Shown piece after piece: positions 2,223 through 47,541 of a DNA stretch of 64,000 nucleotides. The translations under genes were made by a program, and so were the position numbers. The DNA comes from Myxococcota bacterium. Lineage in GTDB: Bacteria > Myxococcota_A > Bradymonadia > UBA7976 > UBA1532. The notes beneath the pieces were generated by a model. The model did not search any database. It saw only the letters and a list, made by a program, of their open reading frames with translations, and was not told the DNA's origin. Where the stretch lies: the NCBI GenBank assembly GCA_036337435.1, contig JAYZEG010000069.1, positions 14,893-78,892 on the forward strand, read 5' to 3'. Positions within the stretch are counted from its first letter, which is position 1, and every line of letters starts with the position of its first letter.

Positions 2223-4496
2223 TCAGGGTGGGCCGCTTGAGGGGAGCCCCCCATCCATTTGCGAGTTCCTTCGTACGTATTGGCAGGAAAAATGGCGTGT
2301 GTCGAGAGGCTGAATGTTGTCCCCACAGAAGAAAGCGAGGCGCTCCTTGATTGCATCAAGCGCATCATTATGCCCGCTTCTAATAAATGCTTCAGCGGCC
2401 CTCAAAACATTAATGCGGGCCATCTGAGCTGCTGAAAAAGATGGGATTGCCAGTTGAGCAGAATAACACTTTGATGCCGATGCCCAATCATCAATACTGC
2501 TGTAGGCCAGTGCCTGCAAGGGGAGGTAATACCTGATGAGAGCTTGGCCTCCATACCCCCTAATAAAACTTTGAACGGCGAAATCCCCCTTTTCAATCCG
2601 GGGGGCTGTCATGAGCATGAATTCAAAAACGAGCGGCCTTAAATAGCGGGCTTGATTCGCAAGATGGGTTGTCGATTCCAGAAACGTAAAACACTGGTCT
2701 AACACGCTTTCATACTGACCCCTTTTCCAACTACGCAAGATTTTCACGTACTGGGCTGTGTGACGGACCCATTCAATTTTCGAGTTCATAGCCAGAGCCA
2801 AGTGTGCGTCGAGTAAGTGAGTCTCATCGCGCTCTAATTCACTCATCAGTAGGTGGATTCGAGCGAGGTCAGTGACGACGCCAGTTCCTTGATCGAGCAG
2901 CCGATTGAGATGTACCTGACTCTCATTGATTTGCCCAATGGACGCTAGGGCGACACTCAGGTAATAGGTCGCAGTCCATACATCATGCCGAGCAGTGTCT
3001 TGGCTTTTAACCTGCTGGAATCGACCATCTATGATCTGTTCCAGGACCGGTATTGCAGGCCGGTAATCCGGTTTTTTTGGATGACCTAGAATGGCTTGCT
3101 GCCATCTAAACGCGGCTCGCTGATGCAGGTGGGCGTACGTCAATGGTGTGTCAAGGCTTCGGCCCTTTTCGAGTTGATAGAGGCCTTTCTTGAGTTCGGG
3201 GAGGCTGTCACTCATCGGTCGAGATGCCAGACCAAAATCCGCATTGTAAGCCGAGAGGTGTGTCTTTGACCAGAGGACTCGATTATCAGTCCAACTGTGG
3301 GGGTTAAGTTGTCCCCGTGCCAGTTCGAGATGCCGTTTCGTAATCTCTACAAATTCATTGACCGCGATGGTTTGTTCCGGGCGGTGGCGATCCAATTGTC
3401 GCGTATGTGTTTGTCCAGCCGGTTTGTTGGCCAAGTCTTGTATGCGAGTCAACCCAATCACCGAAAGTGAAATTAGTCCGAGTCCAATGATATAGCTCCA
3501 ACGGGGGATCCATTGTGACTGATGTCCTTGAAAACGATTGTTCGACGGTGCGCGAGAGCCCATTGGGTCGGTTTTTCGATCCCGTACTGGAGCACCTTTG
3601 AATGTCATAGGGTCTCCAGATTCAACTTGTTGAATCATCGGTTTAGCGGTCTTAAGAGTGCGGATTTGGCTCAATCGACTGGCGAGTTGCCGTGCCGTGG
3701 TGAGCTGTCCATCTCCATTAACCTGCAGGAGGTCCAACAAAACGTCACTCAGGTGGTGACATTTTTCGCTCTCTGCGCCAAACCGCTTCCTCAATTTTGC
3801 ATTGAACGAGTCTACTTGGCCCAAGCCTGTTGCCGACTCACCGGTTAGGCACTGGTAAATCACAGTCCCTAGCCCGTAGAGGTCTACGCGTGCATCCTTA
3901 ATTGAATCCGATTGTGCTTGCCTATTCCTCGTATGCCCTAGGTTGGCTGATCCTTTTCTGGCGTATTGAAAGCCAAAGCCTTTGAGCGTTGCGCATAAAC
4001 CGTCTTCAGACTGTGTAATGATGATGTTTGCCGGGTTTATGTTTTGGTGAAGAATACCCAGTCGATGGCTTTCCTCCAGTGCGGAGCAAATATCCAGTGC
4101 GAGTTCGACACATGTGTCAAGGTCGATTTGATGGCTATCGAGATAGTCGGAGAGTGTAGGGCCATCCAGGGCTTCGCAGACAATGTATCTCAACCCATCG
4201 GCTAATCGGCCGTGGTCGAGTAGGGAAACCACGCGTTCATGGCGTAGCCGCGTCAATGCGGTCGCTTCAGATTCAAACCGCTGTACAAATTCGGATGTTG
4301 ATTCGTCTTGATGGCCAAAGACATGAACCACAACCAAGCGATCCAGTGCAACCTGTCGAGCTACGAAACTGCCATTGTTGACTGTATTGTCCAATGGACG
4401 TTCAACTCGATAGCGTTGTCCAATGAGTGTACCCGTCTCGATTTTGACGGCAGGCTGTGAGTCTCGGCCGGTGGTCATATTGCTTTGGGTCACCAA
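2223..4496 (-). CDS. Ser/Thr-kinase-like protein with degenerate catalytic motifs (predicted pseudokinase), one TM segment and a C-terminal helical/TPR-like domain
   Basis: 757-aa ORF (TTG at 4496; first ATG at 4478). The kinase fold is recognisable (IGQRYRVERPL..., FESEATALTRLRH, DLYGLGTVIYQCLTGE). However, the VAIK Lys is replaced (VVVHVF), HRDxKxxN reads HQNINPAN, and DFG reads GFG. TM segment: WSYIIGLGLISLSVIGL. Confidence 0.8.
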   Translation of the reverse strand: MVTQSNMTTGRDSQPAVKIETGTLIGQRYRVERPLDNTVNNGSFVARQVALDRLVVVHVFGHQDESTSEFVQRFESEATALTRLRHERVVSLLDHGRLADGLRYIVCEALDGPTLSDYLDSHQIDLDTCVELALDICSALEESHRLGILHQNINPANIIITQSEDGLCATLKGFGFQYARKGSANLGHTRNRQAQSDSIKDARVDLYGLGTVIYQCLTGESATGLGQVDSFNAKLRKRFGAESEKCHHLSDVLLDLLQVNGDGQLTTARQLASRLSQIRTLKTAKPMIQQVESGDPMTFKGAPVRDRKTDPMGSRAPSNNRFQGHQSQWIPRWSYIIGLGLISLSVIGLTRIQDLANKPAGQTHTRQLDRHRPEQTIAVNEFVEITKRHLELARGQLNPHSWTDNRVLWSKTHLSAYNADFGLASRPMSDSLPELKKGLYQLEKGRSLDTPLTYAHLHQRAAFRWQQAILGHPKKPDYRPAIPVLEQIIDGRFQQVKSQDTARHDVWTATYYLSVALASIGQINESQVHLNRLLDQGTGVVTDLARIHLLMSELERDETHLLDAHLALAMNSKIEWVRHTAQYVKILRSWKRGQYESVLDQCFTFLESTTHLANQARYLRPLVFEFMLMTAPRIEKGDFAVQSFIRGYGGQALIRYYLPLQALAYSSIDDWASASKCYSAQLAIPSFSAAQMARINVLRAAEAFIRSGHNDALDAIKERLAFFCGDNIQPLDTRHFSCQYVRRNSQMDGGLPSSGPP

Positions 4497-4533: not shown

Positions 4534-4797
4534 TTAAGCAGTCTTACGTCGACGCGCGATGACAAATAAAACGCCACCAACGATAAAACACGTCGCAGAC
4601 GCGCCACCATAAATATCTAGGCCGGGTTCAAACACGTCCACCCATTTGTCGGGAAGTGGGTCACCAAAGTCATCGGTCCCATCTTGTTTAACCAATTTCT
4701 GCGTTAACGTGGCCAGGTGTCGTGGCTCAGACAAAGCATACCAATAGGATAAGATGGCAAAACCGAGACCAAAAAGCACCAATGATGCTTTGTTCAT
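4534..4797 (-). CDS. Small two-TM membrane protein, family not recognised
   Basis: 87-aa ORF that starts with no gap after the YceI stop. It has two hydrophobic helices (LVLFGLGFAILSYWYAL; ATCFIVGGVLFVIA) and a basic tail RRRKTA. Confidence 0.5.
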   Translation of the reverse strand: MNKASLVLFGLGFAILSYWYALSEPRHLATLTQKLVKQDGTDDFGDPLPDKWVDVFEPGLDIYGGASATCFIVGGVLFVIARRRKTA

Positions 4798-5379
4798 TTA
4801 GTTCCCCTTACCCCTCAGCGATACCGTAATATCAATGGTCTTTCCCACTTTACTTCCAACGATGCCTGTTGCGCCTTCAACTTTGTAGTCAGCGAGCTTC
4901 ACTTGGAATTTTGACATGATTTTGTATTTGTCACCCTTCCACTTCACATCAGCCTTTGTCGAAATCGACTTTGTCACGCCATGGAGGCTCAGATCACCAT
5001 TTAAGGTCACCGTGCCGGTCGAGACGTCTTTGTCTTTTTTCAGTTCACCGTTTGCACTCGCAGATTTGATGACGAACGTGATCTCAGGGAATTGTTTTTC
5101 ATCGAGCCAAGTATCTGAACGTAGATGTTCATCCCGCTGGTCATTTCCTGTTTTCATTCCCGCTACAGAGACAGATGCTTTTCCGGTTATGGATCCCAGA
5201 CTTTGCTTATCGATATTGAACTCGCCTGTCGCGGGCGCGGTGCCTTCAATCCGTTCCATAGGCGCATCGCTGATAAATTGAATATTGCCCTTGAATTTGA
5301 TGGTCGTTGGTTGGGCCAGCACCGGTGAGAGCCCCATGAGAATTGATGCAGCTGAAAAGATTAAAACATTGAACTTCAT
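4798..5379 (-). CDS. YceI-like periplasmic (polyisoprenoid/quinone-binding family) protein
   Basis: 193-aa ORF with a signal peptide (MKFNVLIFSAASILMGLSPVLA) and a YceI-type core: MKTGNDQRDEHLRSDTWLDEKQFPEITF ... GDLSLHGVTKSI. Confidence 0.8.
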   Translation of the reverse strand: MKFNVLIFSAASILMGLSPVLAQPTTIKFKGNIQFISDAPMERIEGTAPATGEFNIDKQSLGSITGKASVSVAGMKTGNDQRDEHLRSDTWLDEKQFPEITFVIKSASANGELKKDKDVSTGTVTLNGDLSLHGVTKSISTKADVKWKGDKYKIMSKFQVKLADYKVEGATGIVGSKVGKTIDITVSLRGKGN

Positions 5380-5388
5380 AACGTTCCC

Positions 5389-6612
5389 CTAATGAAAGAT
5401 ATGCAATTGAACCGTTGTTTGACCGAAGATATAGCGGTCTGTTTTCGTTACGCGATATTCTGGACGAATCTCGACGCCCGGCATCAAAAAGAATTCAATA
5501 CCGCCAATGAATTGCCACGTGTTTGATTTTTGAATTGCGTCGGTGACACCTCGCTCGATCCGCAGTGCCGGCACCAACCAATCTTTGATGGCATAGGTTG
5601 TCGACAGGCTTATGCTGGAGTTCGAATAGCTCTCATTGCGTTCACTATGGGAGGCTTCCAATCGCGACTCCAGGCCATTTTGTAAGCCTGCTCCGACGAA
5701 CGCGTTCGCTATGTAGAACTCGTTGCTGCCGTAGATCGATGCACCCAACCATGTATTAATGCCGATTGGGGGTGATGGAGGAGGCGCGTCAAAGTCATCA
5801 AAATCATCATCGCTATCCTGCGCACCGCCCAAGGTAATTCGAGGCAGAAATGTGATGCGAACTGCGTAGGCGGCTGGCCACAGATCGGACGACTTGGTGC
5901 CTTGGTTGAGTGACTGGTCCAAGTTGTCAGTGTGAAATGCGCCTACTTCAGTTCTGAACCAGGACTTTGGCTGGTAGCCTATTTCACCGCCCCATTCGGC
6001 ATAATTGGGGGGGATGACAGGCTGACGTGGATAAGCTGCATCACCCCTGAGTAAGGTTGTATGGTCATCGGGTCGAATCCCGATATGGGGTTGCATCATT
6101 CCGGCTCGAGCGGACCAGCCGGTGTCGCTTTGTGCCTGAACAGAGAGTTCGAAACACGACATACCCGGAAAGACTGGATCGCACAATTTGCCATCATATG
6201 AGTTGGGCCCCGCATTGTAGCTCCCGGAGATGGTTACTCCATCGATGAGCGTAGCACCCGCGTTGATTTGAACTTGCATTGGAATGGCTTTTGGTTCTGG
6301 GATGGAGATGGATTCCTCACCCGATTGATTTCGCTCCCGGACCGGAATGCCAAAATGGGCATACTGAATTCTGATATTGTAGCCCATGGCCAATCGGTCT
6401 TCGACAACCTGATTGGAGTCAAATAGTCTAAAATCAAATGCCCCGGTTCGTCCCATTGAACCATATCCGACCTCGTTTCGAGCACCGCCGCCGGTCGGGC
6501 TAAAATGACAGGTAGCGCAGGGCGAACCAGCAGGCAATGCCATGCGTGGTGTCGCGTTGGCAACGGACACCAAACCGGTCAATAACCAGACGCAAATCCA
6601 AAGGATCTTCAT
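5389..6612 (-). CDS. Exported monoheme c-type cytochrome fused to a predicted outer-membrane beta-barrel (Cyc2-like cytochrome-porin architecture)
   Basis: 407-aa ORF with a signal peptide ending VSVANA. A single CXXCH (CATCH, residues 32-36, nt 6505-6519) follows. The rest is Gly/aromatic-rich alternating sequence ending ...TTVQLHIFH. ATGA overlap with the upstream Rieske gene. Confidence 0.65.
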   Translation of the reverse strand: MKILWICVWLLTGLVSVANATPRMALPAGSPCATCHFSPTGGGARNEVGYGSMGRTGAFDFRLFDSNQVVEDRLAMGYNIRIQYAHFGIPVRERNQSGEESISIPEPKAIPMQVQINAGATLIDGVTISGSYNAGPNSYDGKLCDPVFPGMSCFELSVQAQSDTGWSARAGMMQPHIGIRPDDHTTLLRGDAAYPRQPVIPPNYAEWGGEIGYQPKSWFRTEVGAFHTDNLDQSLNQGTKSSDLWPAAYAVRITFLPRITLGGAQDSDDDFDDFDAPPPSPPIGINTWLGASIYGSNEFYIANAFVGAGLQNGLESRLEASHSERNESYSNSSISLSTTYAIKDWLVPALRIERGVTDAIQKSNTWQFIGGIEFFLMPGVEIRPEYRVTKTDRYIFGQTTVQLHIFH

Positions 6613-7133
6613 GATGGCGCACTGTTGTCTGGGCTCTCTTCACCGACGAAGACGATTGCTCGATTGGCATTCGCATCAAATTCCACACGATACGAATCGA
6701 TCGCCTGGCCTGATAGAGACCCGGGCAGCGGCTGCCCTGATGCATCGAAGCGGGAACCGTGATGAGGACAGATAAGAGAATCATCAAACCAGACAGCTCC
6801 GATATTCGGCGACATTTCTAGCTGCTCATGTGGACAAATTCGATTGAGTGCGATGATTTCTGTTTGCGACGATCGAACCGCTACGAGTTGCCAAGCACCG
6901 TCTGTAACTTCCGCGATACCGCCGACAGCTTGAAGTGCATTATATTGGCTCGAGTTGAGGTCCAACTCAATTTCCCGATAGCCCAGATCACCGTAGACGT
7001 CGGCGAAAGTGCAGCCCGCTGACGACAGCAGAGCAAGACTGCATCCGCCTGCAATCGTGGTTCGAATGGCGTCTCGCCGTGTCGGTTGGAGAATCTCTAA
7101 CCCATCCTCATTTTTGCCCGATTTTTTGGCCAT
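6609..7133 (-). CDS. Tat-exported Rieske [2Fe-2S] protein
   Basis: 174-aa ORF with a twin-arginine leader (QPTRRDAIRTTIAGGCSLALLSSAGC). Rieske ligands are C100-P-H102 ... C122-P-H-H125 followed by GSRFD (nt 6759-6836). Confidence 0.85.
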   Translation of the reverse strand: MAKKSGKNEDGLEILQPTRRDAIRTTIAGGCSLALLSSAGCTFADVYGDLGYREIELDLNSSQYNALQAVGGIAEVTDGAWQLVAVRSSQTEIIALNRICPHEQLEMSPNIGAVWFDDSLICPHHGSRFDASGQPLPGSLSGQAIDSYRVEFDANANRAIVFVGEESPDNSAPS

Positions 7134-7191: not shown

Positions 7192-8052
7192 TCAAGAAAC
7201 TGAATTGGTTCCCGTCGTTTTTCTCCAAGGTGGAGTCTGGCCGATGAGTTTTTCCAACTCTCGGTCGAATGGTTGATAAAATTCGCGGAGTCTTAACTCG
7301 ATTTCATCGGGCAGTGGTTCTGGTTTGAAGGGCAGTTGTCGCCCAAAACGCAGCAATCGCTTGATGAAGCTCGGCAGCAGGCGAGACAACCTCGGCCGGT
7401 GGAAAACAAATTTATAAAAGGGATTTTTGAACACCGACCGTGAATTGCGCGGTTTCAGATGAGCTGACACATCAACCGTATCGTCGATGCCAAGAAAGCG
7501 AAAGCATTGCTTGTAGACGCCGTGTGGGTCGTCTTTGAGGTCCGAAAACCAGAGAATGAGTAGGTTGTCTCGTTTGAAATGGGTCAAGAATCGCTTCAGG
7601 TAAATGCTGTAGCATCCTCGACTGAAATAGTTGGTGCGGCCTGCTTTGAAGACTTGGTGGATAGGCTTGCGCAGATGCTCTGCGAAAGAATGGCCTTCAG
7701 CCAACCATCGGCGATTGTCCCAATATTGTGAGTATGCTCGTTGGACAGGGTCTCTCAGAATCACGATCAGCTTCGCCTGTGGCAGGGCCCTCGCCAAACG
7801 TTCAGGTGAGCGCGGATGGCATAAATAGCCAGGGCTGGCCTCGCCGCATTTCTGACCCGGGTTGGCTTCCCTGAAATAGGACGAATAGTGATTAAGTCCT
7901 TTCTTAAACTCTCCATCTAGAAAAAAGAAATTGAGTTCCTTCTTCTCGGGTAAATAGAGGTCTGGATGTTGTCTCAGGACGTGCCAGAGACTTGACGTAC
8001 CGGCTTTCTGTGAGCCGATGATACAGAAATCTGGTAGGCGCGCATCACTCAT
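7192..8052 (-). CDS. PAPS-dependent sulfotransferase family protein
   Basis: 286-aa ORF with a 5'-PSB loop (IIGSQKAGTSSL) and a 3'-PB motif (ILRDPVQRAYSQYW). No signal peptide. Confidence 0.8.
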   Translation of the reverse strand: MSDARLPDFCIIGSQKAGTSSLWHVLRQHPDLYLPEKKELNFFFLDGEFKKGLNHYSSYFREANPGQKCGEASPGYLCHPRSPERLARALPQAKLIVILRDPVQRAYSQYWDNRRWLAEGHSFAEHLRKPIHQVFKAGRTNYFSRGCYSIYLKRFLTHFKRDNLLILWFSDLKDDPHGVYKQCFRFLGIDDTVDVSAHLKPRNSRSVFKNPFYKFVFHRPRLSRLLPSFIKRLLRFGRQLPFKPEPLPDEIELRLREFYQPFDRELEKLIGQTPPWRKTTGTNSVS

Positions 8053-8195: not shown

Positions 8196-8801
8196 TCACT
8201 GCGGTGCCTTGACCGTCGGCATGCCACGAAACAGGCGTAGACTCTCGCCATCATCGATGCTGTCGAGTTTGAGTGATTTTGAGTTAACCGTGACTTTCCA
8301 ACGATGTGTCTTACTCCCGATGGGACCGACGGTAGACGCCTCCACAAACAGTAGATTGGGTCGTTCGGGGTCCGGTGTTTCCGCCACTTTGAGCGCATAT
8401 GTCCCGCGTTGAGCACTGTCACCACCGAGATAAATGTTCATTCTGCCATCATCCGCAAACTCGTATGCGACATGGGCCATGGCCTGTTTCTTCGCCTTCA
8501 TGGCCGCAAATTGGTCGACTTTTGACAGTTTTCGGATGGCATCATCGGGCTTGATTGAATTCACATCGATTTTCCAAATGCCGACCAGCAAACTTTCTGC
8601 ATCGTCTTGATTATCGATGGGTGAATCGGGCGTATCATCAACTTTTTCGTCCGACGGCTCTTCTGCTTTGACGACAGCCTTTGACATCTTTGGTTTTTTC
8701 GGTGCGTCGGGATTCGCCTCCCCAACTTCGTCATCTCCTTGAGCTGTCTCACATCCAAGGAGTGCAGAGCCCAAGACCAGAATCAAAAATAACAATCTCA
8801 T
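8196..8801 (-). CDS. Lipoprotein, unknown function
   Basis: 201-aa ORF with a signal peptide and lipobox (LGSALLGC), an acidic/lysine-rich linker, then a globular domain. Confidence 0.6.
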   Translation of the reverse strand: MRLLFLILVLGSALLGCETAQGDDEVGEANPDAPKKPKMSKAVVKAEEPSDEKVDDTPDSPIDNQDDAESLLVGIWKIDVNSIKPDDAIRKLSKVDQFAAMKAKKQAMAHVAYEFADDGRMNIYLGGDSAQRGTYALKVAETPDPERPNLLFVEASTVGPIGSKTHRWKVTVNSKSLKLDSIDDGESLRLFRGMPTVKAPQ

Positions 8802-8905: not shown

Positions 8906-10879
8906 TCAATCTACTTTCTTCGCTGGCCATTCGGCGACAATATACTTTTCTTCGAGTGTAGGCTCACCGCCTACTTTGGGGTCCGGAGACCGGTCCCCAA
9001 CCCACCACACTGTCACAGATTTGATGCGCTCCCCGGCTTTGAGTTTCAGGCGATCTATTTTTGAGTTTTTCAACCAGCTGATTAACTCGCCGCGATACCG
9101 TTTGTGGCGGCCCGATGCAATGCGCATCGAATAGCTGCCCCAGAATTGGTCCCATTGCATCTTTCTTGCGTCGGCCGGACCGAAATCCGGAATCCGATTT
9201 GTCTGCGGATCGACGTGGCTGCCATCCATTCGAACGGCATCGATAACGAGCCATCCGTCCTTTACGGGGGCGTTGGGTGCGAACATGCTCCACCCTTGAA
9301 AAATCCGAGCATAGCTCACGATTTTTTTGAGTCCCGTTGGCTGCTTGTAGTTAATGCCGAAGGTCTTCTTCAAAACCTGGACTTTCATGAATCGATTTTC
9401 ATGCAGCATTTGTGATGTCGTCGCGGCAAATAAAAGCACGATGAGACTGGTTGCCACGATGGTCCGAATTGTACTGATGGAGCTGATTACACGCGCTTGG
9501 GGTCCAGGTGAGTCCAACATGATTGGCAGACCACATTCCCCATAACCGAGTGCCGCACTGACCCGATGCCGCCTGGATGCGAAGGCCGCATACATCAGCC
9601 CCATGAGCTGCGTGAGACCAGGGAGAAAGAGTGGCCAGCTGATCAACCGGCCCAGTGGCAGTGCATTGATGATTCGACCAATGGCGCGGTGACCTATTTC
9701 ATGGCCTCGTCCATCCACTGACTCAGTGATCAGTGCATCCTCTCGAAGGGCATCGAATCTGTCAGACGACATGCTATGAGGTCTAACTGCGCTGCCTCGA
9801 CTGCCATGCCATTCGATCAAGCCGAGCCGGTCAAGACGTGACCCTAAACGGGCTAATCTAAAGCAAATTCCGCAATGATCATCGTACCAAACACGGATTT
9901 TCTGGCCCGACAGTTTACGAAGTATGTCTTTAGCCAGCTCTATATCCTCACGTCTTAGCAGTAAAAAGAAGCTGACCATCATGGTGGGTGAAAACAAACC
10001 GACATCGGTCAGTAACCAAATCCCTGTGTGGAGACCGACCAATAGAATGATGGCGATACGCCTGGCCCAGAGCACCTTAAATGGCGTCAGAAGAAGTAGC
10101 GGCGCAATCCCCTCGATAACCAGAGTGCCCCAGGTCAGAATTTGTGAAATCCAAAGTGGCCAAGTGGCTTTAGCCCATAGACCAAGGCGTGTGACGATGC
10201 GATCTTGCTCGAGGCAATACGCGATGCTTGTACCGTCAGCCCAGGTACTGCCCCCCTTGTGGACTGTATTGAAGAAGTAAATGATGGCGAGCTGCCATAA
10301 CACCATGAACATGACCAAGGAGCGAATTGGTTTTGTCTCGGAGGCTATGGGTCCGAACAGCTGACCTGGGTTTAAATCGGTTGAATTCCTGAGGCTACTG
10401 CGAATCGAATCAATGCTGAGGCGTTGACCGAGCGGAAGCCATATCGTCCAAATCCACCAGATGTTCATGACCACATCACCACCATTGGCGAGCATGGTGT
10501 TTCGACTGTGAATGCTCAGAACACACAGCCAGGATATGATTTGAAATAGCTTGGTTCGATACCCGATTGTGAAAAAGAACAGAGAGATCAGTGTAAAGAC
10601 AAAGAAACCAGTCACTTCCGCAGGCGTGGAAAAGCCCGACAATAGGCTGATGTTGTCCCTAAATAGCGGACTGAAAAGATTGTAATGATTACTGAGTGTG
10701 CCGGTGTTGCTGTAGAAGGTTTCTATCCACTGAAACCGTCGAGCTACATCGTAAATGCACAGCAGCCCGAAGACGATTCTAAATAGGCCCATCGCGCTCG
10801 GATCAATCTGGAGCCATGCCTGTCCAAAGCGCTGTCTCACAGTCGATGGGAGTCCCTTTGCGGTCGGTCGACGCGTCAT
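8906..10879 (-). CDS. HTTM (vitamin-K-dependent gamma-carboxylase-like) domain protein fused to a DCC/DUF393 thiol-disulfide oxidoreductase domain and a C-terminal LMF1-like domain
   Basis: The ORF is open from 10912, but the ATG at 10879 avoids overlap with the upstream gene. N-terminal multi-TM HTTM-like region: GLFRIVFGLLCIYDVARRF.... The WYDDHCGICFRLARL motif (CGIC at nt 9863-9874) is typical of DUF393/DCC. A C-terminal FQGWSMFAPNAP segment follows. Confidence 0.75.
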   Translation of the reverse strand: MTRRPTAKGLPSTVRQRFGQAWLQIDPSAMGLFRIVFGLLCIYDVARRFQWIETFYSNTGTLSNHYNLFSPLFRDNISLLSGFSTPAEVTGFFVFTLISLFFFTIGYRTKLFQIISWLCVLSIHSRNTMLANGGDVVMNIWWIWTIWLPLGQRLSIDSIRSSLRNSTDLNPGQLFGPIASETKPIRSLVMFMVLWQLAIIYFFNTVHKGGSTWADGTSIAYCLEQDRIVTRLGLWAKATWPLWISQILTWGTLVIEGIAPLLLLTPFKVLWARRIAIILLVGLHTGIWLLTDVGLFSPTMMVSFFLLLRREDIELAKDILRKLSGQKIRVWYDDHCGICFRLARLGSRLDRLGLIEWHGSRGSAVRPHSMSSDRFDALREDALITESVDGRGHEIGHRAIGRIINALPLGRLISWPLFLPGLTQLMGLMYAAFASRRHRVSAALGYGECGLPIMLDSPGPQARVISSISTIRTIVATSLIVLLFAATTSQMLHENRFMKVQVLKKTFGINYKQPTGLKKIVSYARIFQGWSMFAPNAPVKDGWLVIDAVRMDGSHVDPQTNRIPDFGPADARKMQWDQFWGSYSMRIASGRHKRYRGELISWLKNSKIDRLKLKAGERIKSVTVWWVGDRSPDPKVGGEPTLEEKYIVAEWPAKKVD

Positions 10880-10887
10880 ACTTTTGC

Positions 10888-12582
10888 CTAGCTTCCCTTT
10901 ATGGCATTCCATGCAATGCCGGGCACTTTGGCCAGAGACGGTTTCTTTTCCATGGATGCCATTCTACGCGCCACAGCCAATGACCGTTTGTGGGTGACAA
11001 ACCAAGGTGGCTTAGGGAAAACCTTAAAAGGCCCTCGCAGAACGGTTTTTACTGGCTTATCAAACAAATTGGTGTTGTGCACGAAGCCAATGCCGCTTTG
11101 GATGTCGTCTAAGGTATGACCTGGATAAGCACCCCATGCCGTGGCACCCATGCCGTAGCACAGACCCGGCCAGTGGTTGATGGCAACGCTTCCGTATCTC
11201 AGTTCTTTGATGGCCCTGTTGATTTCTGACTCGATCCGTTTCTCCGTGGTTGGATGCACGATGATGCAGGCGTTCAACGTGCCCCAGAGTCGTTCATTGC
11301 AAAAGTCGACAGCGGTTTTCAAGAAATCGGCGGCATCATGTCCCGGGAGCGTCGTTTGAGCGGTGATTCCGCAAAAACTTTCTTCCACAAAGCAGATTTC
11401 GTTGGTGTCCTCGCTGGAGCAATTGGGGATTAAAGTCCAAGGTAGGGTGTCTGCTGTGCGCTTCCCGATAGAGACAGCCTGGTCATGTCCATCGACAAAT
11501 TTGTCGTAGCGCTCGTGTGCACCAGGGTAATACGCTGGTCGACTCGGCAGCTTGGCCAAGACAGATTTCAACATGTCCATGAATTCGGTACGTTGGTTCC
11601 AATCCTCGTGAAATATAAGCACTTTCGCCGCATTGCAATTAAAGCCACCGTTATTGGTCATTTGCGTTGCGATATTTTCTGCATGAAAGCGAAGCTCTGA
11701 CTGATTCCATGAGCCTGGCACGACGATCACCGGACTTACGTTGCCAAGTTCACTGGTGATTCGCTTGTGGTTTTTGGGTTGGTTTGCGGCTTTCCGGCGC
11801 TGACCTTCTTCACCGGTGCCGAAGACGATCGCATCGTGGGTGAAATTACTCCCTGTGATGTGGATCTCGTCGACGCAGTCGTGTTCGCACAGATATGCGC
11901 CGACATCGCCTCCACCGTAGGCCAAGCGCATGAAGCCTCCATCGATGAGGTCTTTGAATGCACGTTCGATGAATGGCCCTAAGTACTCGTTGACAGGATT
12001 CATTTTCAGAAGGCAAACCTGACCCTCTACGAAGAGTTTGTGGATCACGTCTAATGGGCCGATGCTGGCTACATTTCCGGCACCTAAAACCAATGCGACG
12101 CGACCCGATTGACCGCTGTGGTCCTGGCGATAAAACTCCGCCATGTGATCGGAGAGGTTTTGTCGGCTAATCCCTTGCGCTTGCCAGATCTCAGCTTCAA
12201 ATCCAGTGAGTAGCAATGTGTCTGTGAATTCATGGGGAATCACCTGCACCGCGATTTGGTCAGGTCCGACATCGCGGATTTGCTTTGGTTTGATTTCCAC
12301 TCGTCCACGGTCTCTGAGCTGTCGTAGGCTGTCTAAGAGGAGTCGAATCGTTCGCCCTTGTACAACCGGGCCTGCAAGATAGTCTTCGGCGGCCATCGCA
12401 CTTCCTGGCACGACGCCTTTGGCTTCGACAGCTGCATCGACTTGGTCGTCAGCGACTGCAAACGTGCCTTCAAATACGGCTTCGAGATATTTGATACGAC
12501 TGGCCAGATCCATGTGCAGCCAGGTGTCGGCGTGAGACCTCAATACGTCGAGGTCCTTATCTAACTTGCCTTGATCAACCAA
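10888..12582 (-). CDS. Aldehyde dehydrogenase superfamily protein (long form)
   Basis: 564-aa ORF with a TTG start preceded by AAGGGGA. ALDH-type motifs: ELGNVSPVIVVPG and the catalytic-Cys context GGFNCNAAKV. Confidence 0.8.
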   Translation of the reverse strand: MVDQGKLDKDLDVLRSHADTWLHMDLASRIKYLEAVFEGTFAVADDQVDAAVEAKGVVPGSAMAAEDYLAGPVVQGRTIRLLLDSLRQLRDRGRVEIKPKQIRDVGPDQIAVQVIPHEFTDTLLLTGFEAEIWQAQGISRQNLSDHMAEFYRQDHSGQSGRVALVLGAGNVASIGPLDVIHKLFVEGQVCLLKMNPVNEYLGPFIERAFKDLIDGGFMRLAYGGGDVGAYLCEHDCVDEIHITGSNFTHDAIVFGTGEEGQRRKAANQPKNHKRITSELGNVSPVIVVPGSWNQSELRFHAENIATQMTNNGGFNCNAAKVLIFHEDWNQRTEFMDMLKSVLAKLPSRPAYYPGAHERYDKFVDGHDQAVSIGKRTADTLPWTLIPNCSSEDTNEICFVEESFCGITAQTTLPGHDAADFLKTAVDFCNERLWGTLNACIIVHPTTEKRIESEINRAIKELRYGSVAINHWPGLCYGMGATAWGAYPGHTLDDIQSGIGFVHNTNLFDKPVKTVLRGPFKVFPKPPWFVTHKRSLAVARRMASMEKKPSLAKVPGIAWNAIKGS

Positions 12583-33057: not shown

Positions 33058-34169
33058 TGGGAATGAACCAACTAGAGCATGATTTGGCGGCTGCACTGAA
33101 AGACCATGACGTTGTTGGCGAGCCCCTCAGTGATGAGCGATTCGCTGAAATTGTCGAAGGCGCGGAGATGACCGCAGCTGAAGCGAAATACCTTTTAGGC
33201 TGCCAGGAATCTCGTGAGCTCCTGGTCTTATTGGGGCAGACATTGGCCGAACTGGAGCCCATTGAAAGACAGCCAAGACCGCCCTCATTTACGTCCCCCA
33301 CGCCACCGAAGAGACCGTCCGTCGCCGACGATGGTTTAGGTCGGGGAAGAAAACGCGCATCGGTGGTGTCAGCGAGTGTCTTCTTGTGCGCAGCCCTTGC
33401 TTTTGCCGGTGTAGGCTATGTTGGCTATCAGGTGTTGGTCAAACGCGATGTCGAGCCTACCCTGAAGACAAAGGTTCGACCCGAAACAGGTCAGGCTGTC
33501 CCGACGTCTGGCAACTCTTCGCGTCAAACGTCACCGTCGAAGTCCAATCTAATCAAGGAAGACGAGAGCCGGGTCGCTGAGGGCCAGTCCATACGACCGA
33601 GGACTGCACAGGCTGGTTTAAGGGTCGAGAGCCGTACGCACCGGTCGGATGAAAACCGCAAGCCGACAGACCGCCAACACACCTCAGGCCCTAAATCGAA
33701 GGGTCTTAAAAGACCATCGAAGATGACAAGAACAATGGGCTCAGCGCGCACACGCTCATCAGTTCAAAGTGAAAATAAAAAGCCTCATTCGCAGCCAAAC
33801 AGGGCGTCGAAACCCAAGGTGAAAAACACAAAGAGCGTTTTTGAGGCGCGTTTGGGCACGCAACGCTTGGAACAGAGACGCGGCCCGATCGAGGTGACAC
33901 GGCAGGCTGTTTCAGGACCGAGTCGAGGATTTGGGCAACTCCGGTTAAACAGTAAACCCGCAGCGGAAGTATTCATTGACGGACTTAGGCGCGGCTGGAC
34001 GCCGATTATCGATCTCAGACTCCAAGCTGGGCCGCACGACGTCAAGCTGGTCTACAGAAGTCCGCTCGCCGATAAGACTGAAGAGCGATTCAGGGTGATC
34101 ATTAAAGCGGACCAAACCTGGGGCACAGTCCGTGACAATCGAAAAAAAGTAGATGAGTCGGTTAAATAG
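33057..34169 (+). CDS. Putative membrane anti-sigma factor with a C-terminal PEGA-like domain
   Basis: The start overlaps the sigma stop (TGATG). It has a short cytoplasmic N-terminus, one TM segment (VVSASVFLCAALAFAGVGYVGY), a long basic low-complexity linker, and a C-terminal segment GQLRLNSKPAAEVFIDGLRRGWTPIIDLRLQAGPHDVKLVY. Confidence 0.6.
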   Translation: MGMNQLEHDLAAALKDHDVVGEPLSDERFAEIVEGAEMTAAEAKYLLGCQESRELLVLLGQTLAELEPIERQPRPPSFTSPTPPKRPSVADDGLGRGRKRASVVSASVFLCAALAFAGVGYVGYQVLVKRDVEPTLKTKVRPETGQAVPTSGNSSRQTSPSKSNLIKEDESRVAEGQSIRPRTAQAGLRVESRTHRSDENRKPTDRQHTSGPKSKGLKRPSKMTRTMGSARTRSSVQSENKKPHSQPNRASKPKVKNTKSVFEARLGTQRLEQRRGPIEVTRQAVSGPSRGFGQLRLNSKPAAEVFIDGLRRGWTPIIDLRLQAGPHDVKLVYRSPLADKTEERFRVIIKADQTWGTVRDNRKKVDESVK

Positions 34170-36267
34170 CGCGGCGTCGACGGTGACTTAATACAGCCAT
34201 CAAGAACCAGAAGAGTGGATTGAGCCCCGTGCCAGCGTGTCCACTGACGACACAGCCTGAGGATTTTGGCCTTCCATTGATGACGATAAACCCACCGCCA
34301 TTGGCTACACCCCCATCAGGCGTCGTCTCCGCAAAGCCACAGCCCTCGTCGACGAGCCCATCGCAATCATCGTCTTGTTGGTCCTCGCATCGCTCACTTG
34401 TCCCAGGGTTGATGTCAGGCCTATCATCGCGGCAATCATCTCGTGCGCAGAAACCATCTTGGTCACTATCAACACACGCATCGCATCCCTCGTCGATGAC
34501 ACCATCACAGTCATCGTCGAGTTGATTGTTACAGGCTTCCGCAGCACCCGGTCGTCGCTGTGAATCTTGGGGCGCGCAATCATCATCGTCGCAGACAGAG
34601 TCATTGTCGGAGTCGGCACACTCTCGCTCACCGACGCACCGACCAAATTCGACCGCTGAGTCTGGATAAAGGTCACACCTTTGGCCGTTGCTGCAATCGG
34701 CATCCTGATAGCAATTCTCGACACAGGTTGTTCCTCCGTTTGCAAATCGGCAAACCGCGCCATCGACGCAAGTTGTTCGTCCCGCAAAACAGCTTGCACC
34801 AATCGGCTGACTTTCGGTTTCTCTGCAGTACGTGGAACCCCATTGTTCGGCTACACATGCGAATTGTGCGGGACAATCCCCTCCTGTCATCCGGCAATTG
34901 TCTGGCGGCAGGCACGCCAGATATTGTGGACGACACGTCTCAAAAATACACGCTTGGCGAGCCAAGTTGTCATTCATCAGGTTGCTGCAGGCATTACTTT
35001 GACACTCACTCAGTGCCAAAAATAGGTCTTGGCTATCATAACGCCCGGTTTGAAAGCATGTTTGTGCACATGTCGCATCACTACACCTTTGAACACAGGC
35101 GTACAGCTCAGCGCAGCTGGCCGTACCCTCTTCGCCAAACCCATCGGGTAGACAGAGCTCGGCACTGGCAGCGCATCTATCTCGGATGCAGCGGGTAGAT
35201 GGCTCAGGGCAGCGGTCATTCAAACATTGCGAGAATTGATAATAGTGTGATTGAGCCGCTTCGGATCCACTATTCAAACAGTTAAATTGGCAGCCGCCGG
35301 CACTGTCGCAATTCTGAAGGCAATCTGTGATATCACGGCATGTGCCGGTCGCACAGCGCGTATGGTCGCACACACCATTGTTCATACAAGCTTGGCCGCA
35401 CAAGCAGACGTCGCCCTGGCTGCAATCTGGCGCAAGCCCCATACGCGCATCGATCCACGTTTGAAAAGCATCCACGCGTGCTTGAAATGACTGAGTTAGA
35501 CATGGCGGATTGGTTCCAGCGACGGAGCTGTTGATGCCTACGACACGCCATTGACCGCCGATATTGGCGAGCCCTGGTCCCCCTGAATCTCCAAAGCAGA
35601 CGCCTTGCCGGTTGTGGTTTGTGAGATAGGCCGAATACGAGACGCCGCCCATTTCAAGGACGGCACTCTTTTTTTGTCCGGAGTCGCTTTCGCCATCTGG
35701 ATTCGACACGCCGTAACCGACATAGGTAATCCCTTGCCCCACAAGATTGTCGATGGGGTCTCGATTGATGGGAAACGGTTCAGCCTCTGCTGCCTCCGTA
35801 AGTCGGACGATGGCAATGTCGTTCAGACTGATCGAAACGGTCTGCCCTTCGTTCCGATCGTATCCTTCATGCATCCAGAACTCGTCAATTTGATACAGCG
35901 TTCCGCTTCTCATCGGGGCTCCCAGAATGTTGGGTCTTGCATCTGGGCCAGTCATGAAGAACATGTCGTTTGGTCGGAGTCTGAAGCCAAGTTCTCGTGC
36001 TTGCTCTTGGGCCCCAGTGATGCAATGAGCTGCTGTTAGAACCCATCGGGGTGCAATTAAGACAGCACTACAGAAGTGACCGATGAACACCCCGTTCCGC
36101 GCTCTCATGGTCATTGCGCCAACGCCCTCGAAGCCCCGTTCAATCGCACCGTTTACAATGGGCCTTTCTAGGCGAGTTGTCTTGGTTTCCAGGTTGGAGA
36201 CAGGTTCACAACCGACCAGACAGCCAATGTAGATTGCGAAGTATGCTAGCCATGTTGTTAACTTCAT
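34162..36267 (-). CDS. Secreted trypsin-like (S1) serine protease with a large Cys-rich C-terminal region and a MYXO-CTERM-type tail
   Basis: 701-aa ORF with WVLTAAHC (His), NDIAIVRL (Asp) and GDSGGPG (Ser). The Cys-dense region includes two DCxxxxxxxxPGxxExC..xxDDDCDGxxDEGC motifs. The tail is SSGCVVSGHAGTGLNPLFWFLMAVLSHRRRRAI. Confidence 0.85.
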   Translation of the reverse strand: MKLTTWLAYFAIYIGCLVGCEPVSNLETKTTRLERPIVNGAIERGFEGVGAMTMRARNGVFIGHFCSAVLIAPRWVLTAAHCITGAQEQARELGFRLRPNDMFFMTGPDARPNILGAPMRSGTLYQIDEFWMHEGYDRNEGQTVSISLNDIAIVRLTEAAEAEPFPINRDPIDNLVGQGITYVGYGVSNPDGESDSGQKKSAVLEMGGVSYSAYLTNHNRQGVCFGDSGGPGLANIGGQWRVVGINSSVAGTNPPCLTQSFQARVDAFQTWIDARMGLAPDCSQGDVCLCGQACMNNGVCDHTRCATGTCRDITDCLQNCDSAGGCQFNCLNSGSEAAQSHYYQFSQCLNDRCPEPSTRCIRDRCAASAELCLPDGFGEEGTASCAELYACVQRCSDATCAQTCFQTGRYDSQDLFLALSECQSNACSNLMNDNLARQACIFETCRPQYLACLPPDNCRMTGGDCPAQFACVAEQWGSTYCRETESQPIGASCFAGRTTCVDGAVCRFANGGTTCVENCYQDADCSNGQRCDLYPDSAVEFGRCVGERECADSDNDSVCDDDDCAPQDSQRRPGAAEACNNQLDDDCDGVIDEGCDACVDSDQDGFCARDDCRDDRPDINPGTSERCEDQQDDDCDGLVDEGCGFAETTPDGGVANGGGFIVINGRPKSSGCVVSGHAGTGLNPLFWFLMAVLSHRRRRAI

Positions 36268-39283: not shown

Positions 39284-40054
39284 CTAGTTGCCGGTGCCGA
39301 TCTGGGCGACATGCTCACTTCTAATCCATGCGCCCTGTCCGTTAGGTAGTGTGACTTGCTGCCACTTACCGTCCTCGCCGCCGAGCCTGACTTTGACGCT
39401 ATTGGAGACTTGTGCCTGGGTATCATATTGCTGCCCAGGCCCGCGGTACGCCGTTGTATCGTCGAGAAGAACCCCATATCTAGCATCGTCAATAATGTAA
39501 CTTCGAGAGATCAGTAGCCCACCGGCGCAGGTAGCGACGAGGCCCGTGATAATCAGCACGAGGCTCAGGCTTGCTCTTCGACGCGCCGTGCTCATGAGTA
39601 AATACCAACACGAAAATAAGAGGCACCACGAGACAGCAAATGCGATTCGAATCGGCGTCAGCGGGATTGAAGAAAGCAGACCTGTACCCAAATCGTCGGA
39701 ACCAGGTAGAACCAATGTACCGGCTTGTGAACGGGCCAGTGCTTTATCTAGAACCCATGCTTTGACAGCATCGAGATTGAAGCGCGCATCTTTGTGGTCA
39801 GGTTGCAGCCAAAGAGCTGTTTCTAGTGCATGGGTTGCTTGTCCCATACGGCCCGCTTGTGCTTCAGCAGTCCCTAAATTGAACCATAAATCGGCTTGCC
39901 TCGGATGCGTCTCGATGAGGCTGCGATAGGTTGCCGCAGCCGTGCCAAATTTACCCGACCAAAACGATTTTTGAGCGCGTTCGAGTCCCGGAGATGCGCT
40001 TGCCAAACCGACCCAATAGACGATTGCCAGGCAAAAGCCCAAAACGTACTTCAT
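39284..40054 (-). CDS. batE: BatE-like TPR + SH3 domain protein
   Basis: 256-aa ORF with a signal peptide, TPR repeats, a TM segment and a C-terminal SH3-like end (GKWQQVTLPNGQGAWIRSEHV). It is the last gene of the Bat operon, with a 4-nt overlap. Confidence 0.7.
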   Translation of the reverse strand: MKYVLGFCLAIVYWVGLASASPGLERAQKSFWSGKFGTAAATYRSLIETHPRQADLWFNLGTAEAQAGRMGQATHALETALWLQPDHKDARFNLDAVKAWVLDKALARSQAGTLVLPGSDDLGTGLLSSIPLTPIRIAFAVSWCLLFSCWYLLMSTARRRASLSLVLIITGLVATCAGGLLISRSYIIDDARYGVLLDDTTAYRGPGQQYDTQAQVSNSVKVRLGGEDGKWQQVTLPNGQGAWIRSEHVAQIGTGN

Positions 40055-41850
40055 TGACCTTCGGCCTCCATCTGGCTAATCAATTCATTGACTCGCTGCA
40101 CAGTTTGTTGAAGGTCACCGGCGTCACCGGCTCGTGCGAAACGAGCAAACTCAATGGCTTCCATCTGTTCTGTCAATCCGCGGGCTGTCGCTTTCGATAC
40201 GCCAGTTTTCATTAAGAGCGTCGTGATTTGGTCAAATGTCTTACCTTTAATGTTCACTTGAAAGCGCTGGCTAACGAAATCCACAACGATCGAATGCGTT
40301 TTTCTGTACCCATCAGCCAAATCTTTAGATTTGCTGATCTGAGCCAGGCGCTGCTTGGCTGCACTGCCCGCATTCTTTGCAGCCCGCTCATCGGCCGTTG
40401 CAAATCGATGTTTGCGAACCATGCCGAGGAGCAACATCAGCATAAAAACAGCAGGCGTGCCAGCGACCACACTCATAAACCAGGTGGGTGTCCGACTCCC
40501 CGATGCAGCCACATCCAGATCGATCGAGTCTCGTATTGAGTGAAGCTTGATCTCTTTTCGGCTCGATCCATCTGTTGACCCGTCTCCCATTTTTGGCTGA
40601 CTTTGTCCGGTCACTTGGACAGTATACTGTTGCGTTCGAGCGGTTTTATAACGACCCGTTCCAGGGTCGAAATAGGCCAATTTGAGCGATGGTATGACCA
40701 TTTTACCCGCTTGGTTTGGCCGAACAAGCCAGACCTGTTTTCGGATATTTATTTTCCGTTGGCCCCGTTGAATCGATTGGGTTTTGGTTGGCGATGGAAA
40801 TACTCGATAAGTTGGGCTATCAGGTAACTTGAATTCCGGCACGTTGGCAATCAAGCCCTCCATTCTGAGTTCGACGCTTAACTCAACACCCTCCGTAGCC
40901 TTAATCCGCCTTCGATCAATGCGCCCTCGCAATCGGGTTTTACCCACTACGATGCCCCGATAGTTTTTTGGGCGTCCAGCTTTGGGTAGGGGACGGACTT
41001 CAATATCGAGTTTTGGCGCCGCCCGGTTAATGGTCTGCGCTCGACCTCGGCGAAAGAATCCTCCGGATGACAATTCTATCTGGGCTTCAATGGGAGGCAG
41101 ACTTAACTGTCCAGAACGCATCGGATAAAGGGTATACTGCGCGATGGAGTCTTTAATGAAAGCATACTCACCGATTTGAACTCGTTGGGCCCGACCTGAT
41201 TCCCCCTTGGACTCTTCATTCCAGAATCCCGAGAGGTCAATTTTTCCTGGGTCAAGGCGACTGACCCGAAGTCCCTGGCGATAGTGAATATAGAGTTGAG
41301 CTTGGATAGGTTCGCCCAGCCATACTGCACTGCGGTCGATTTCCCATGTAAGGAAAGCATACTCATCAGGTGCACCGCCTGTTGGTGCCGAATCATCCGA
41401 CGGATTTGTTGTCGATGATTGGCCGCCGGAGGGTGGTGAACCGGTTTGCCCACCTGCTTGGGTTACTGTGACGATGACCGATTCTGACTTATACCGCTTC
41501 TGCCCAACCTTCAGCGAAAAGGGAGAAATTTTAAGTTGACCGGTTTTGCTCGGTTGCAACTGTAGGTCGAGAATCGTGATCTTCTGCTGTCTGCTGGAGT
41601 CGTAGGTTGTCCGCTTGAATTGACCAACGACCGTCCAGTCGAGAAGAGATGGGGCTTCAAGGGAACCTTGATTATTGGATTGGCCCTGAATTGCAACTTG
41701 AACATTCACGGTGACCGTTTGACCGATTTCGATCCGCTTGGGAGAGACGCTTACGTTGAGTGATGTCTCGGCCTGTCCGACCAGTGGAGCGAACAAGACT
41801 GCCCACATAACAAGAAAGCGTCTGCGAATGTTCGAAAGTGCCACCGACAT
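40051..41850 (-). CDS. batD: BatD-like oxygen-tolerance family protein
   Basis: 599-aa ORF with a signal peptide, repeated beta-sandwich-like regions, a late TM segment (WFMSVVAGTPAVFMLMLLLGMV) and a cytoplasmic tail. Its operon position is the same as in Bacteroides batD. Confidence 0.7.
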   Translation of the reverse strand: MSVALSNIRRRFLVMWAVLFAPLVGQAETSLNVSVSPKRIEIGQTVTVNVQVAIQGQSNNQGSLEAPSLLDWTVVGQFKRTTYDSSRQQKITILDLQLQPSKTGQLKISPFSLKVGQKRYKSESVIVTVTQAGGQTGSPPSGGQSSTTNPSDDSAPTGGAPDEYAFLTWEIDRSAVWLGEPIQAQLYIHYRQGLRVSRLDPGKIDLSGFWNEESKGESGRAQRVQIGEYAFIKDSIAQYTLYPMRSGQLSLPPIEAQIELSSGGFFRRGRAQTINRAAPKLDIEVRPLPKAGRPKNYRGIVVGKTRLRGRIDRRRIKATEGVELSVELRMEGLIANVPEFKLPDSPTYRVFPSPTKTQSIQRGQRKINIRKQVWLVRPNQAGKMVIPSLKLAYFDPGTGRYKTARTQQYTVQVTGQSQPKMGDGSTDGSSRKEIKLHSIRDSIDLDVAASGSRTPTWFMSVVAGTPAVFMLMLLLGMVRKHRFATADERAAKNAGSAAKQRLAQISKSKDLADGYRKTHSIVVDFVSQRFQVNIKGKTFDQITTLLMKTGVSKATARGLTEQMEAIEFARFARAGDAGDLQQTVQRVNELISQMEAEGQ

Positions 41851-41859
41851 CTGTTTTGC

Positions 41860-47537: not shown

Positions 47538-47541
47538 CAGA

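Follow-up and report, generated by a model that had tools for sequence, protein, structure and literature searches.

Fused cytochrome-porins are the main genetic marker from which microbial iron oxidation is inferred in genomes and metagenomes. A 64,000-nucleotide stretch of DNA from a Myxococcota bacterium (assembly GCA_036337435.1, contig JAYZEG010000069.1, positions 14,893 to 78,892 of the forward strand; hereafter the window) encodes a protein of this general layout beside a Rieske protein and a YceI-family protein, and raises the question of whether these genes specify an electron conduit across the outer membrane and whether the porin is Cyc2, the cytochrome-porin Fe(II) oxidase. Our analysis indicates that the cassette probably encodes an electron-transfer module with the haem-porin and the Rieske protein at its core. 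The best explanation overall, which we hold with slightly better than even confidence, is a self-contained envelope module in which this core pair works with a second, quinone-linked pair. The four genes, all on the minus strand and packed as an earlier note on this DNA had described, are reproduced in the list of open reading frames (ORFs). They encode a Tat-exported [2Fe-2S] Rieske lipoprotein of 174 amino acids (aa) (6609-7133; ORF list and Pfam), a 407-aa haem-porin, that is, a monohaem cytochrome c fused to a 16-strand outer-membrane porin (5389-6612; ORF list and AlphaFold2), a 193-aa YceI-family periplasmic lipocalin with a signal peptide (4798-5379; ORF list and Pfam), and an 87-aa small protein with two transmembrane segments, probably located in the inner membrane (4534-4797; ORF list and hydrophobicity). 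The junctions can be read in the sequence itself: the Rieske and porin genes overlap by ATGA (6609-6612), the porin stop codon TAG is followed by GGGAACGTT (9 nt) and the ATG of the YceI gene, and the TAA of the latter abuts the ATG of the small-protein gene with 0 nt between them. These junctions suggest translational coupling of the cassette genes.

The haem-porin has a signal peptide (MKILWICVWLLTGLVSVANA) that ends in ANA before the mature residues TP, followed by a single CXXCH, the CATCH haem c attachment site at residues 32-36 (6505-6519, minus strand), which bears out what had been read from the sequence before. This CXXCH is conserved among the homologues, being present in 151/151 full-length members of the family. 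In their alignment, C32, C35, H36, and R81 are 100% conserved, P22, R45, G49, and D183 ~99%, M112 98%, and G29 94%, and a family motif, A-x-P-[RQE]-[MFY]-x-L-x-x-G-x-x-C-x-x-C-H-x-x-x-x-G-G-G-x-R, spans the haem site. The family is large and unnamed: a database search yielded 59 clusters of full-length homologues, none of them with a name and most from metagenome-assembled genomes (MAGs) of Myxococcota and Bradymonadia, and a profile search of 1.84 billion representative proteins retrieved 936 at E <= 1e-3 and 130 at E <= 1e-30. The members tested against Pfam and NCBIfam received no family assignment; the window porin has a sub-threshold OMP_b-brl match alone in Pfam and no match in NCBIfam or among the sequences of the PDB.

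The outer-membrane barrel expected by the earlier note is predicted by AlphaFold2, with ~16 long beta strands at residues 74-406 (mean pLDDT 86.2, pTM 0.81, family alignment as input). The haem-binding segment (residues 32-67) is modelled at pLDDT 73-83 and is therefore no floppy tail. Foldseek searches of the PDB with this model retrieved the 16-stranded porins MOMP, Omp38, PorB, OprP (2o4v), and OprO (4rjw/4rjx) with E values of ~1e-9 to 1e-10, OprP and OprO being among the top matches (TM-score ~0.5). In classical porins, loop L3 folds into the lumen. Here, this constriction loop is predicted at residues 174-205, between strands 5 and 6 (5998-6093, minus strand), and holds D182-D183-H184, the best-conserved stretch after the haem motif; the haem is probably held inside the barrel lumen against it. 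An acidic insertion between strands 8 and 9 (residues 262-282, ...DSDDDFDDFDAPPP..., 5767-5829, minus strand; pLDDT 66-71), present in many family members and missing from others in the alignment, is predicted on the periplasmic side. Both placements were read from strand order and parity under the standard porin topology, not from coordinates. Residue 184 is His in 93% of the 151 members and Met in all the remaining 7%, and the swap co-varies with a change of D182 to Cys. Axial haem ligands are expected to alternate between His and Met in this way, and the sixth (distal) ligand is therefore probably H184 or, failing that, M112, as far as the alignment indicates. A subclade (P0122, P0141, P0144, P0149-P0151, P0155-P0157, and P0159) in which the L3 motif D-D-D-H has become D-C-D-M also has the N-terminal motif A-T-P-E-F-[AS]-L-W-T; the haem may have switched its ligation and potential here. 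At its other end, the window porin closes with ...VQLHIFH (final codon 5389-5391). A terminal His is found in just 3 of the 151 members, including the nearest relatives P0001 and P0003, the terminal residue being Tyr in 106 and Phe in 34, and represents an unusual beta-signal for BAM-dependent insertion. One apparent fusion porin (P0186) was discarded, its second half being a glycoside hydrolase 65 and the fusion probably an assembly or gene-calling artefact.

Cyc2 has been defined by a signal peptide, one CXXCH, a length of at least 365 aa, and a 16-strand porin, and also by the motifs AXPXFAR[Q/K][T/Y] before the haem site and PXL after it, OprP and OprO being the reported templates (Keffer et al. 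2021, PMC8406198). The likeness to Cyc2 proposed by the earlier note holds for the layout (signal peptide, one N-terminal CXXCH, 407 aa, and ~16 strands in an OprP/OprO-like fold) and not for the defining motifs, both of which are missing. PxFAR[QK][TY] was found in none of 145 further family members, and the window sequence A-T-P-R-M-A-L-P-A shares with the Cyc2-like AVPAFARQTG just the A, the P, and the aromatic/hydrophobic position. After the haem site, where Cyc2-like proteins read H-V-S-F-P-E-L, PXL is absent from the window (H-F-S-P-T-G-G-G) and from the family (H-x-x-P-x-G-G-G-x-R). Since two defining features are lacking, the porin should not be filed as Cyc2.

For a closer comparison, we assembled Cyc2-like proteins by tblastn with the motif peptide against plasmid and megaplasmid records, which gave genes from replicons of Ralstonia, Caballeronia, Methylocystis, Ideonella, and Polymorphobacter, and enlarged the set by 113 further homologues to 118 sequences; they are motif-bearing Burkholderiales/Xanthomonadales-type homologues from heterotrophs, not the characterized enzymes. 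The retrieved genes encode AVPAFARQTGxxCxxCHxxFPEL and are followed by c-type cytochrome genes. Profile-profile alignment (hhalign) of the porin family gave 93% (E 3e-7) with five of these sequences and 95.7% (E 8.8e-9, 48 columns) with all 118, the match being confined to the signal peptide and the haem segment. There, both families share a common register, which, counted from the first Cys, has A-x-P at positions -12 to -10 and G at -3, and distant members of the porin family even read A-L-P-R-F-A-L-L-T-G-x-x-C; R-[QK]-[TY] is replaced in the porin family by L-x-x, and PXL by P-x-G-G-G-x-R. A home-made HMM of the 118 Cyc2-like proteins scored porin family members at 17-21 bits, over the N terminus only, and reciprocal scores between the two families were 17-26 bits. 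Pfam and NCBIfam contain no model even for genuine Cyc2-like proteins. The global hhalign of the barrels was of low confidence, and we do not claim homology between them beyond the fold. On these sequence comparisons, the haem modules of both families probably had a common ancestor, and the porin family is a remote relative of Cyc2, not Cyc2 by its published definition.

This relationship bears directly on one account of the cassette, namely that it is a Cyc2-type Fe(II) oxidase working inwards, in which Fe(II) or another reduced solute is oxidized by the haem in the pore and electrons pass through the Rieske protein to soluble carriers (cytochrome c or HiPIP, taken as encoded elsewhere) and a terminal oxidase. 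The matching architecture and the remote homology of the haem segment speak for it, as do the extra cytochrome c genes of two loci (L036 and L063, see below) and the HiPIP-like genes found nearby in others, both being typical oxidase donors. We nevertheless consider it quite unlikely: the two motifs are missing, the 64-kb window contains no cytochrome c, cupredoxin, oxidase, or multihaem genes, the cassette occurs in MAGs of heterotrophs (Myxococcota, Bradymonadia, and Kapaibacteria) sampled in oxic waters, sludge, and sediments, the YceI and small proteins are left without a role, and nothing in this analysis supports Fe(II) oxidation. Moreover, Cyc2 homologues of many organisms that do not oxidize iron have no demonstrated function (PMC12442345).

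Does the cassette behave as a unit across genomes? A scan of one genome per species produced 55 loci, in which same-strand ORFs were searched with HMMs built from the collected homologues. Linkage was counted over 42 informative loci, the window included, with at least 1.5 kb on either side of the porin; related MAGs are counted separately (L050, L052, and L055, for example, are one lineage). The four genes co-occur, a point that the earlier note had proposed to check, all of them being present in 34/42 loci. The Rieske gene lies within 3.5 kb of the porin on the same strand in 39/42, and the YceI and small-protein genes, each found in 35/42, are inseparable (together in 35/35). Five loci (L011, L017-L019, and L025) depart from the usual order Rieske-porin-YceI-small and have YceI-small-Rieske-porin. 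As all genes were kept despite this permutation, the set has been held together through rearrangement, and the cassette is autonomous since its flanking genes vary by lineage. This linkage, which spans several phyla despite the order changes, together with the CXXCH retained in every full-length member within a conserved motif and the junctions suggestive of translational coupling, makes it highly improbable that the protein is an ordinary diffusion porin with an incidental CXXCH in a set of four genes that do not form one system. That account can draw on the weak OMP_b-brl match, the only one given by Pfam, and on two loci where the porin has no partners. In the latter (L009, 6926-9290, and L012, 6946-9344), the porins are 37-39% identical to that of the window, have no Rieske, YceI, or small-protein gene near, and directly follow genes for a ParA/MinD-like ATPase and a small charged protein, with TRAP transporter and urocanase genes on the flanks; candidate divergent YceI and small-protein genes upstream turned out to be ParA-like ATPases and an unrelated small protein.

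Going by the record titles, of which a few are clearly wrong for their bins, the hosts of the 55 loci are mainly Myxococcota, Bradymonadia, and 'Deltaproteobacteria' MAGs, with seven from Kapaibacteria/Chlorobiota, and were sampled by Tara Oceans and from Lake Baikal, Lake Tanganyika, Scandinavian lakes, Caspian sediments, activated sludge, and Lac Pavin. The earlier note had called the module unexpected in a Myxococcota-type heterotroph; it is not odd for Myxococcota, this being the phylum where most members occur. Three MAGs labelled 'Enterobacteriaceae' or 'Klebsiella pneumoniae' (L028, L031, and L038) have a Myxococcota-type cassette with adjoining YceI and small-protein genes, and these labels are probably binning or taxonomy errors.

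The partner most consistently linked to the porin is a genuine Rieske protein (Pfam E 1.7e-8, 34.7 bits against a cut-off of 20.3), as first proposed. Its profile matches best, within the PDB, the b6f subunit PetC (2e-14), AioB (3e-11), and the bc1 Rieske protein (3e-9). The cluster ligands, C100-P-H102...C122-P-H-H125 in the window (within 6759-6836, minus strand), are invariant in 27 homologues. Tandem pairs of Rieske domains occur in some homologues. The bc1-type disulfide pair CxHxxC...CxCH occurs in approximately half of the homologues; the window protein lacks these disulfide cysteines of the high-potential type (CPHEQL...CPHH). Its twin-arginine leader, T-R19-R20-D-A-I by motif, had also been noticed before; the two arginines (7074-7079, minus strand) are invariant in the 27 homologues, and the motif is present in 42/42 Rieske homologues adjoining family porins. 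What the earlier note overlooked is a lipobox: Cys41 (7011-7013, minus strand) is at least 90% conserved in the 27 homologues, and in most of the 42 a hydrophobic stretch closes with the lipobox Cys (...L-x-G-C-[TE]). Since both the twin arginine and this Cys are conserved, the protein is, by its sequence motifs, a Tat-exported lipoprotein. Position +2, counted from the lipobox Cys, holds T, E, or N and in no case D. The E. coli +2 rule would route such a lipoprotein to the outer membrane, and sorting rules vary between phyla; by this reading of the sequence, the Rieske protein is probably tethered under the outer membrane.

The second pair is also of the kinds that had been proposed. Pfam identifies the 193-aa protein as YceI (E 2.4e-25, 90.1 bits against a cut-off of 23.7), with E. 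coli YceI (1Y0G) as its best PDB match (5.7e-9) and a signal peptide (MKFNVLIFSAASILMGLSPVLA) before the residues QP. YceI lipocalins carry ubiquinone-8 (UQ-8) or octaprenyl ligands (PMC9113575, PMC8981238), and in Cbp2D a YceI-like UQ-8 domain is joined to c-type cytochrome domains (PMC8981238). They are usually encoded with a cytochrome b561, the proposed recycler of the bound quinone (PMC9113575); no cytochrome b561 gene is present in the cassette or its flanks. By analogy with these proteins, we tentatively suggest, at rather less than even confidence, that YceI links the cassette to quinone. In the small protein, the two hydrophobic segments noticed before lie at residues 4-23 and 62-82. 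They enclose a conserved loop (D42-x-F44-G45-D46, F56, and G59-L60-D61) and are accompanied by a basic C-terminal tail; among 36 homologues, F44 and G59 are 100% conserved, L60 97%, and G45 94%. From its sequence, this is probably an inner-membrane protein with the conserved loop in the periplasm. Pfam assigns it to no family, and its NCBIfam match, to NF058582.1 (LAVTG sortase-signal motif), is sub-threshold (E 0.032, 14.4 bits, cut-off 27) and covers residues 66-84, the second hydrophobic segment.

If the porin and the Rieske protein form a trans-outer-membrane unit, what do they do where YceI is missing? Distant relatives from low-GC lineages, whose porins are ~25% identical to that of the window, have no YceI or small protein and have kept the porin-Rieske pair. 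In L050 and L055, the gene order is MtrC/MtrF-like 5-6-haem lipoprotein, haem-porin, Rieske, monohaem cytochrome c, c7-like multihaem protein, and a 733-aa fusion of cytochrome b561 (Ni_hydr_CYTB), NapC/NirT, and c3-like domains. L047 has two complete triplets of MtrC-like, haem-porin, and Rieske genes in tandem, a metagenomic member (L063) has the order porin-Rieske-cytochrome c, and in L036 an additional cytochrome c separates the porin and YceI. The b561/NapC fusion was found only in distant clusters without YceI. Judged from gene content, this swap looks like a non-orthologous replacement of the inner-membrane link and suggests that YceI and the small protein take the functional place that an inner-membrane quinol dehydrogenase and periplasmic cytochromes have elsewhere. 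These clusters provide the strongest evidence, at the sequence level, for electron transfer across the outer membrane by the porin/Rieske pair as a unit, and the proposal of an outer-membrane redox conduit is thus supported by distant members beside MtrC-like, cytochrome c, and b561/NapC genes.

The same clusters help to weigh a further account, in which the cassette is an envelope antioxidant comparable to LcoA (cytochrome b561)-BcnA (YceI): quinol held by YceI would act at the outer membrane and quench radicals there, whether lipid peroxyl or others, and the Rieske/haem-porin pair would recycle the quinone or dispose of electrons or radicals. It has a precedent in Burkholderia, where a YceI lipocalin and its redox partner guard against lipid peroxidation and the pairing of YceI with redox proteins is widely conserved (PMC9113575), and YceI is tightly linked to redox proteins here too; such a role would also suit aerobic heterotrophs. 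We regard it as improbable, as the most conserved pair is porin and Rieske, not YceI and a redox protein, the porin-Rieske pairs that lack YceI and stand beside MtrC-like multihaem cytochromes point to electron export or import, and no stress regulator or aldehyde reductase is encoded within the cassette.

Returning to the envelope electron-transfer module, its sequence features, predicted fold, and gene linkage were obtained directly, and from them we infer cofactor contacts, a quinone link, a direction, and a substrate. The porin haem, attached covalently near the mature N terminus, would be held in the barrel against L3 with H184 or M112 as its sixth ligand, and the Rieske lipoprotein under the outer membrane would swap single electrons with it. 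Bc-type Rieske centres oxidize quinol and reduce c-type haem. YceI might dock on the small protein, take up quinol there at the inner membrane, and present it to the Rieske centre, where it would be oxidized as in Qo-site chemistry; electrons would then pass from the Rieske centre to the porin haem and on to a soluble oxidant entering the pore, candidates being Fe(III), Cu(II), or Mn(III) complexes and radical species. Outward flow is favoured since it is the thermodynamically easy direction if quinol is the partner, and we still rate it as doubtful. Taken to its end, this scheme would turn the cassette into a minimal 'outer-membrane bc-like' quinol oxidase that receives its quinol from a soluble shuttle, YceI, and reduces extracellular solutes. 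We consider that full version unlikely; if true, it would be the first protein-borne quinone relay between both membranes and a widespread alternative to multihaem conduits among planktonic heterotrophs, one that needs few cytochromes.

Several points weigh against the module as proposed. All carriers are MAGs, and the module is known here from sequences alone; to our knowledge, most carriers are planktonic or sediment heterotrophs without known extracellular electron transfer. The linkage has exceptions (porin alone in L009 and L012, no Rieske gene in L037). We place the haem segment in the lumen of an AlphaFold2 model that is free of haem, and the potential of the window Rieske protein is uncertain because its disulfide cysteines are missing. 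Quinone binding by the window YceI is assumed from its family, the small protein has no cofactor motif, and the window-type module encodes no recognizable inner-membrane redox enzyme. The porin is the sole ORF of at least 100 aa with a CXXCH in the 64-kb window. Finally, the cytochrome c and HiPIP-like genes near some loci fit inward flow equally well.

Other genes around the cassette and its relatives deserve mention. Scans for sigma-70 promoters and terminators and a search for Fur boxes at the cassette were uninformative, and the upstream alignment revealed a conserved CTGATCGGGGA near the ribosome-binding site and nothing further. Directly downstream in the window, after a 37-nt gap, lies a Ser/Thr protein kinase gene (2223-4496, minus strand); a kinase is also found 3' of the cassette in L001, L002, and L007, and the window encodes a second large one (56477-59266, minus strand). 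Upstream, a 668-aa protein (8906-10912, minus strand) has two domains, one of them HTTM (similar to vitamin K-dependent gamma-carboxylase, with a match to LMF1 as well) and the other a DCC1-like thiol-disulfide oxidoreductase. It represents another quinone- or thiol-related envelope protein and is accompanied by a sulfotransferase (7192-8052) and a 201-aa lipoprotein (8196-8801). These three genes occur upstream of the cassette in the closest relatives L001-L003 only and are therefore placed outside the module. Farther away, a minus-strand run resembles a Bat/MoxR operon (40051-48537), with a MoxR-type AAA ATPase (47542-48537), a DUF58/VWA protein (46653-47537), and a VWA protein (44483-45541), and a 701-aa secreted trypsin-like protease has MopE-type putative metal-binding motifs (34162-36267, minus strand); in L056, a MopE-motif protein is encoded close to the cassette. 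Among the other loci, five from Myxococcota (L022, L024, L026, L027, and L031) encode, 1-2.6 kb downstream of the porin, a small HiPIP-like lipoprotein with a Tat signal and a Cys pattern at its C terminus. Its match to HiPIP is weak (E 0.006, under the Pfam cut-off); in Caballeronia, an annotated HiPIP gene lies upstream of a true Cyc2-like gene. The multihaem lipoprotein of L050 and L055 has a collagen-like GPxG/KDG repeat behind its lipobox, the Kapaibacterium MAG with tandem triplets encodes three paralogous MtrC/MtrF-like 5-6-haem lipoproteins (L047, 4452-13430), and in L054, an 'Ectothiorhodospiraceae' MAG without YceI and small protein, a DUF2231 membrane protein (9211-9696) is encoded downstream of a two-Rieske/porin cluster.

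The earlier note knew of no pathway joining a Cyc2-type protein to a Rieske centre and a YceI protein, and none was found in the literature searched: a search for cytochrome-porin with Rieske gave nothing relevant, one for YceI, Rieske, porin, and cytochrome c gave unrelated proteomics work only, and papers on Cyc2 phylogeny do not mention such a porin family. Conduits of the cytochrome-porin kind have been described before; what is new here is the signature of the family, its partnership with a Rieske lipoprotein, and the pairing of YceI with the small protein. The window porin belongs to a large sister family (936 representative clusters) that has no Pfam or NCBIfam model, has its own signature, and is consistently tied to a periplasmic Rieske lipoprotein, a partner that the literature searched gives for no other outer-membrane conduit; its motif, together with the D-D-H in L3, can be used for annotation and separates it from true Cyc2. 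Its distribution suggests that envelope-spanning redox chemistry is commoner in ordinary heterotrophs than assumed, possible chemistries being metal reduction or oxidation, radical quenching, and the exchange of electrons with minerals or prey. That YceI and the small protein are strictly paired offers a testable handle on YceI function and on periplasmic quinone ferrying.

Compared with known systems, the porin resembles the Cyc2 of Acidithiobacillus ferrooxidans, Mariprofundus ferrooxydans PV-1, and Gallionellaceae in its signal peptide, its ~400 aa, its 16-strand OprP/OprO-type barrel, and one CXXCH in the same register at ~12 residues or less from the mature N terminus. It differs in a barrel without detectable sequence similarity, in the absence of PXFAR[QK][TY] and PXL, and in its partners, a Rieske lipoprotein, YceI, and a small membrane protein instead of Cyc1/c4-type cytochromes, rusticyanin, and oxidases; its carriers, unlike the hosts of Cyc2, are heterotrophs. 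Coupling of a YceI lipocalin gene to redox proteins and a membrane partner recalls E. coli YceI-YceJ and Burkholderia BcnA-LcoA, except that cytochrome b561 is here replaced by a cofactor-less two-helix protein, a Rieske protein, and a haem-porin. Cbp2D and Cbp2E of Cellvibrio and Saccharophagus likewise bring together a YceI-type quinone module (the X158 UQ-8 domain) and monohaem c-type modules outside the cytoplasm; both, however, are secreted, contain several domains including carbohydrate-binding modules, are thought to feed LPMOs, and involve no porin and no Rieske protein. As in the bc1 and b6f complexes (Rieske to cytochrome c1 or f) and AioB, a Tat-exported Rieske domain of the same subclass is paired with a c-type haem. 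In contrast, the cassette has neither a cytochrome b nor a Qo site, its Rieske protein is lipid-anchored instead of helix-anchored and, in the window, has lost its disulfide cysteines, and the haem partner resides in the outer membrane. Lastly, the proposed module shares with MtrCAB, MtoAB, and PioAB the transfer of electrons across the outer membrane through a beta-barrel, and its distant members adjoin MtrC/MtrF-like lipoproteins; whereas those systems thread a separate decahaem protein through a ~26-strand barrel, the 16-strand barrel here bears one haem of its own and has an iron-sulfur protein as its periplasmic partner.

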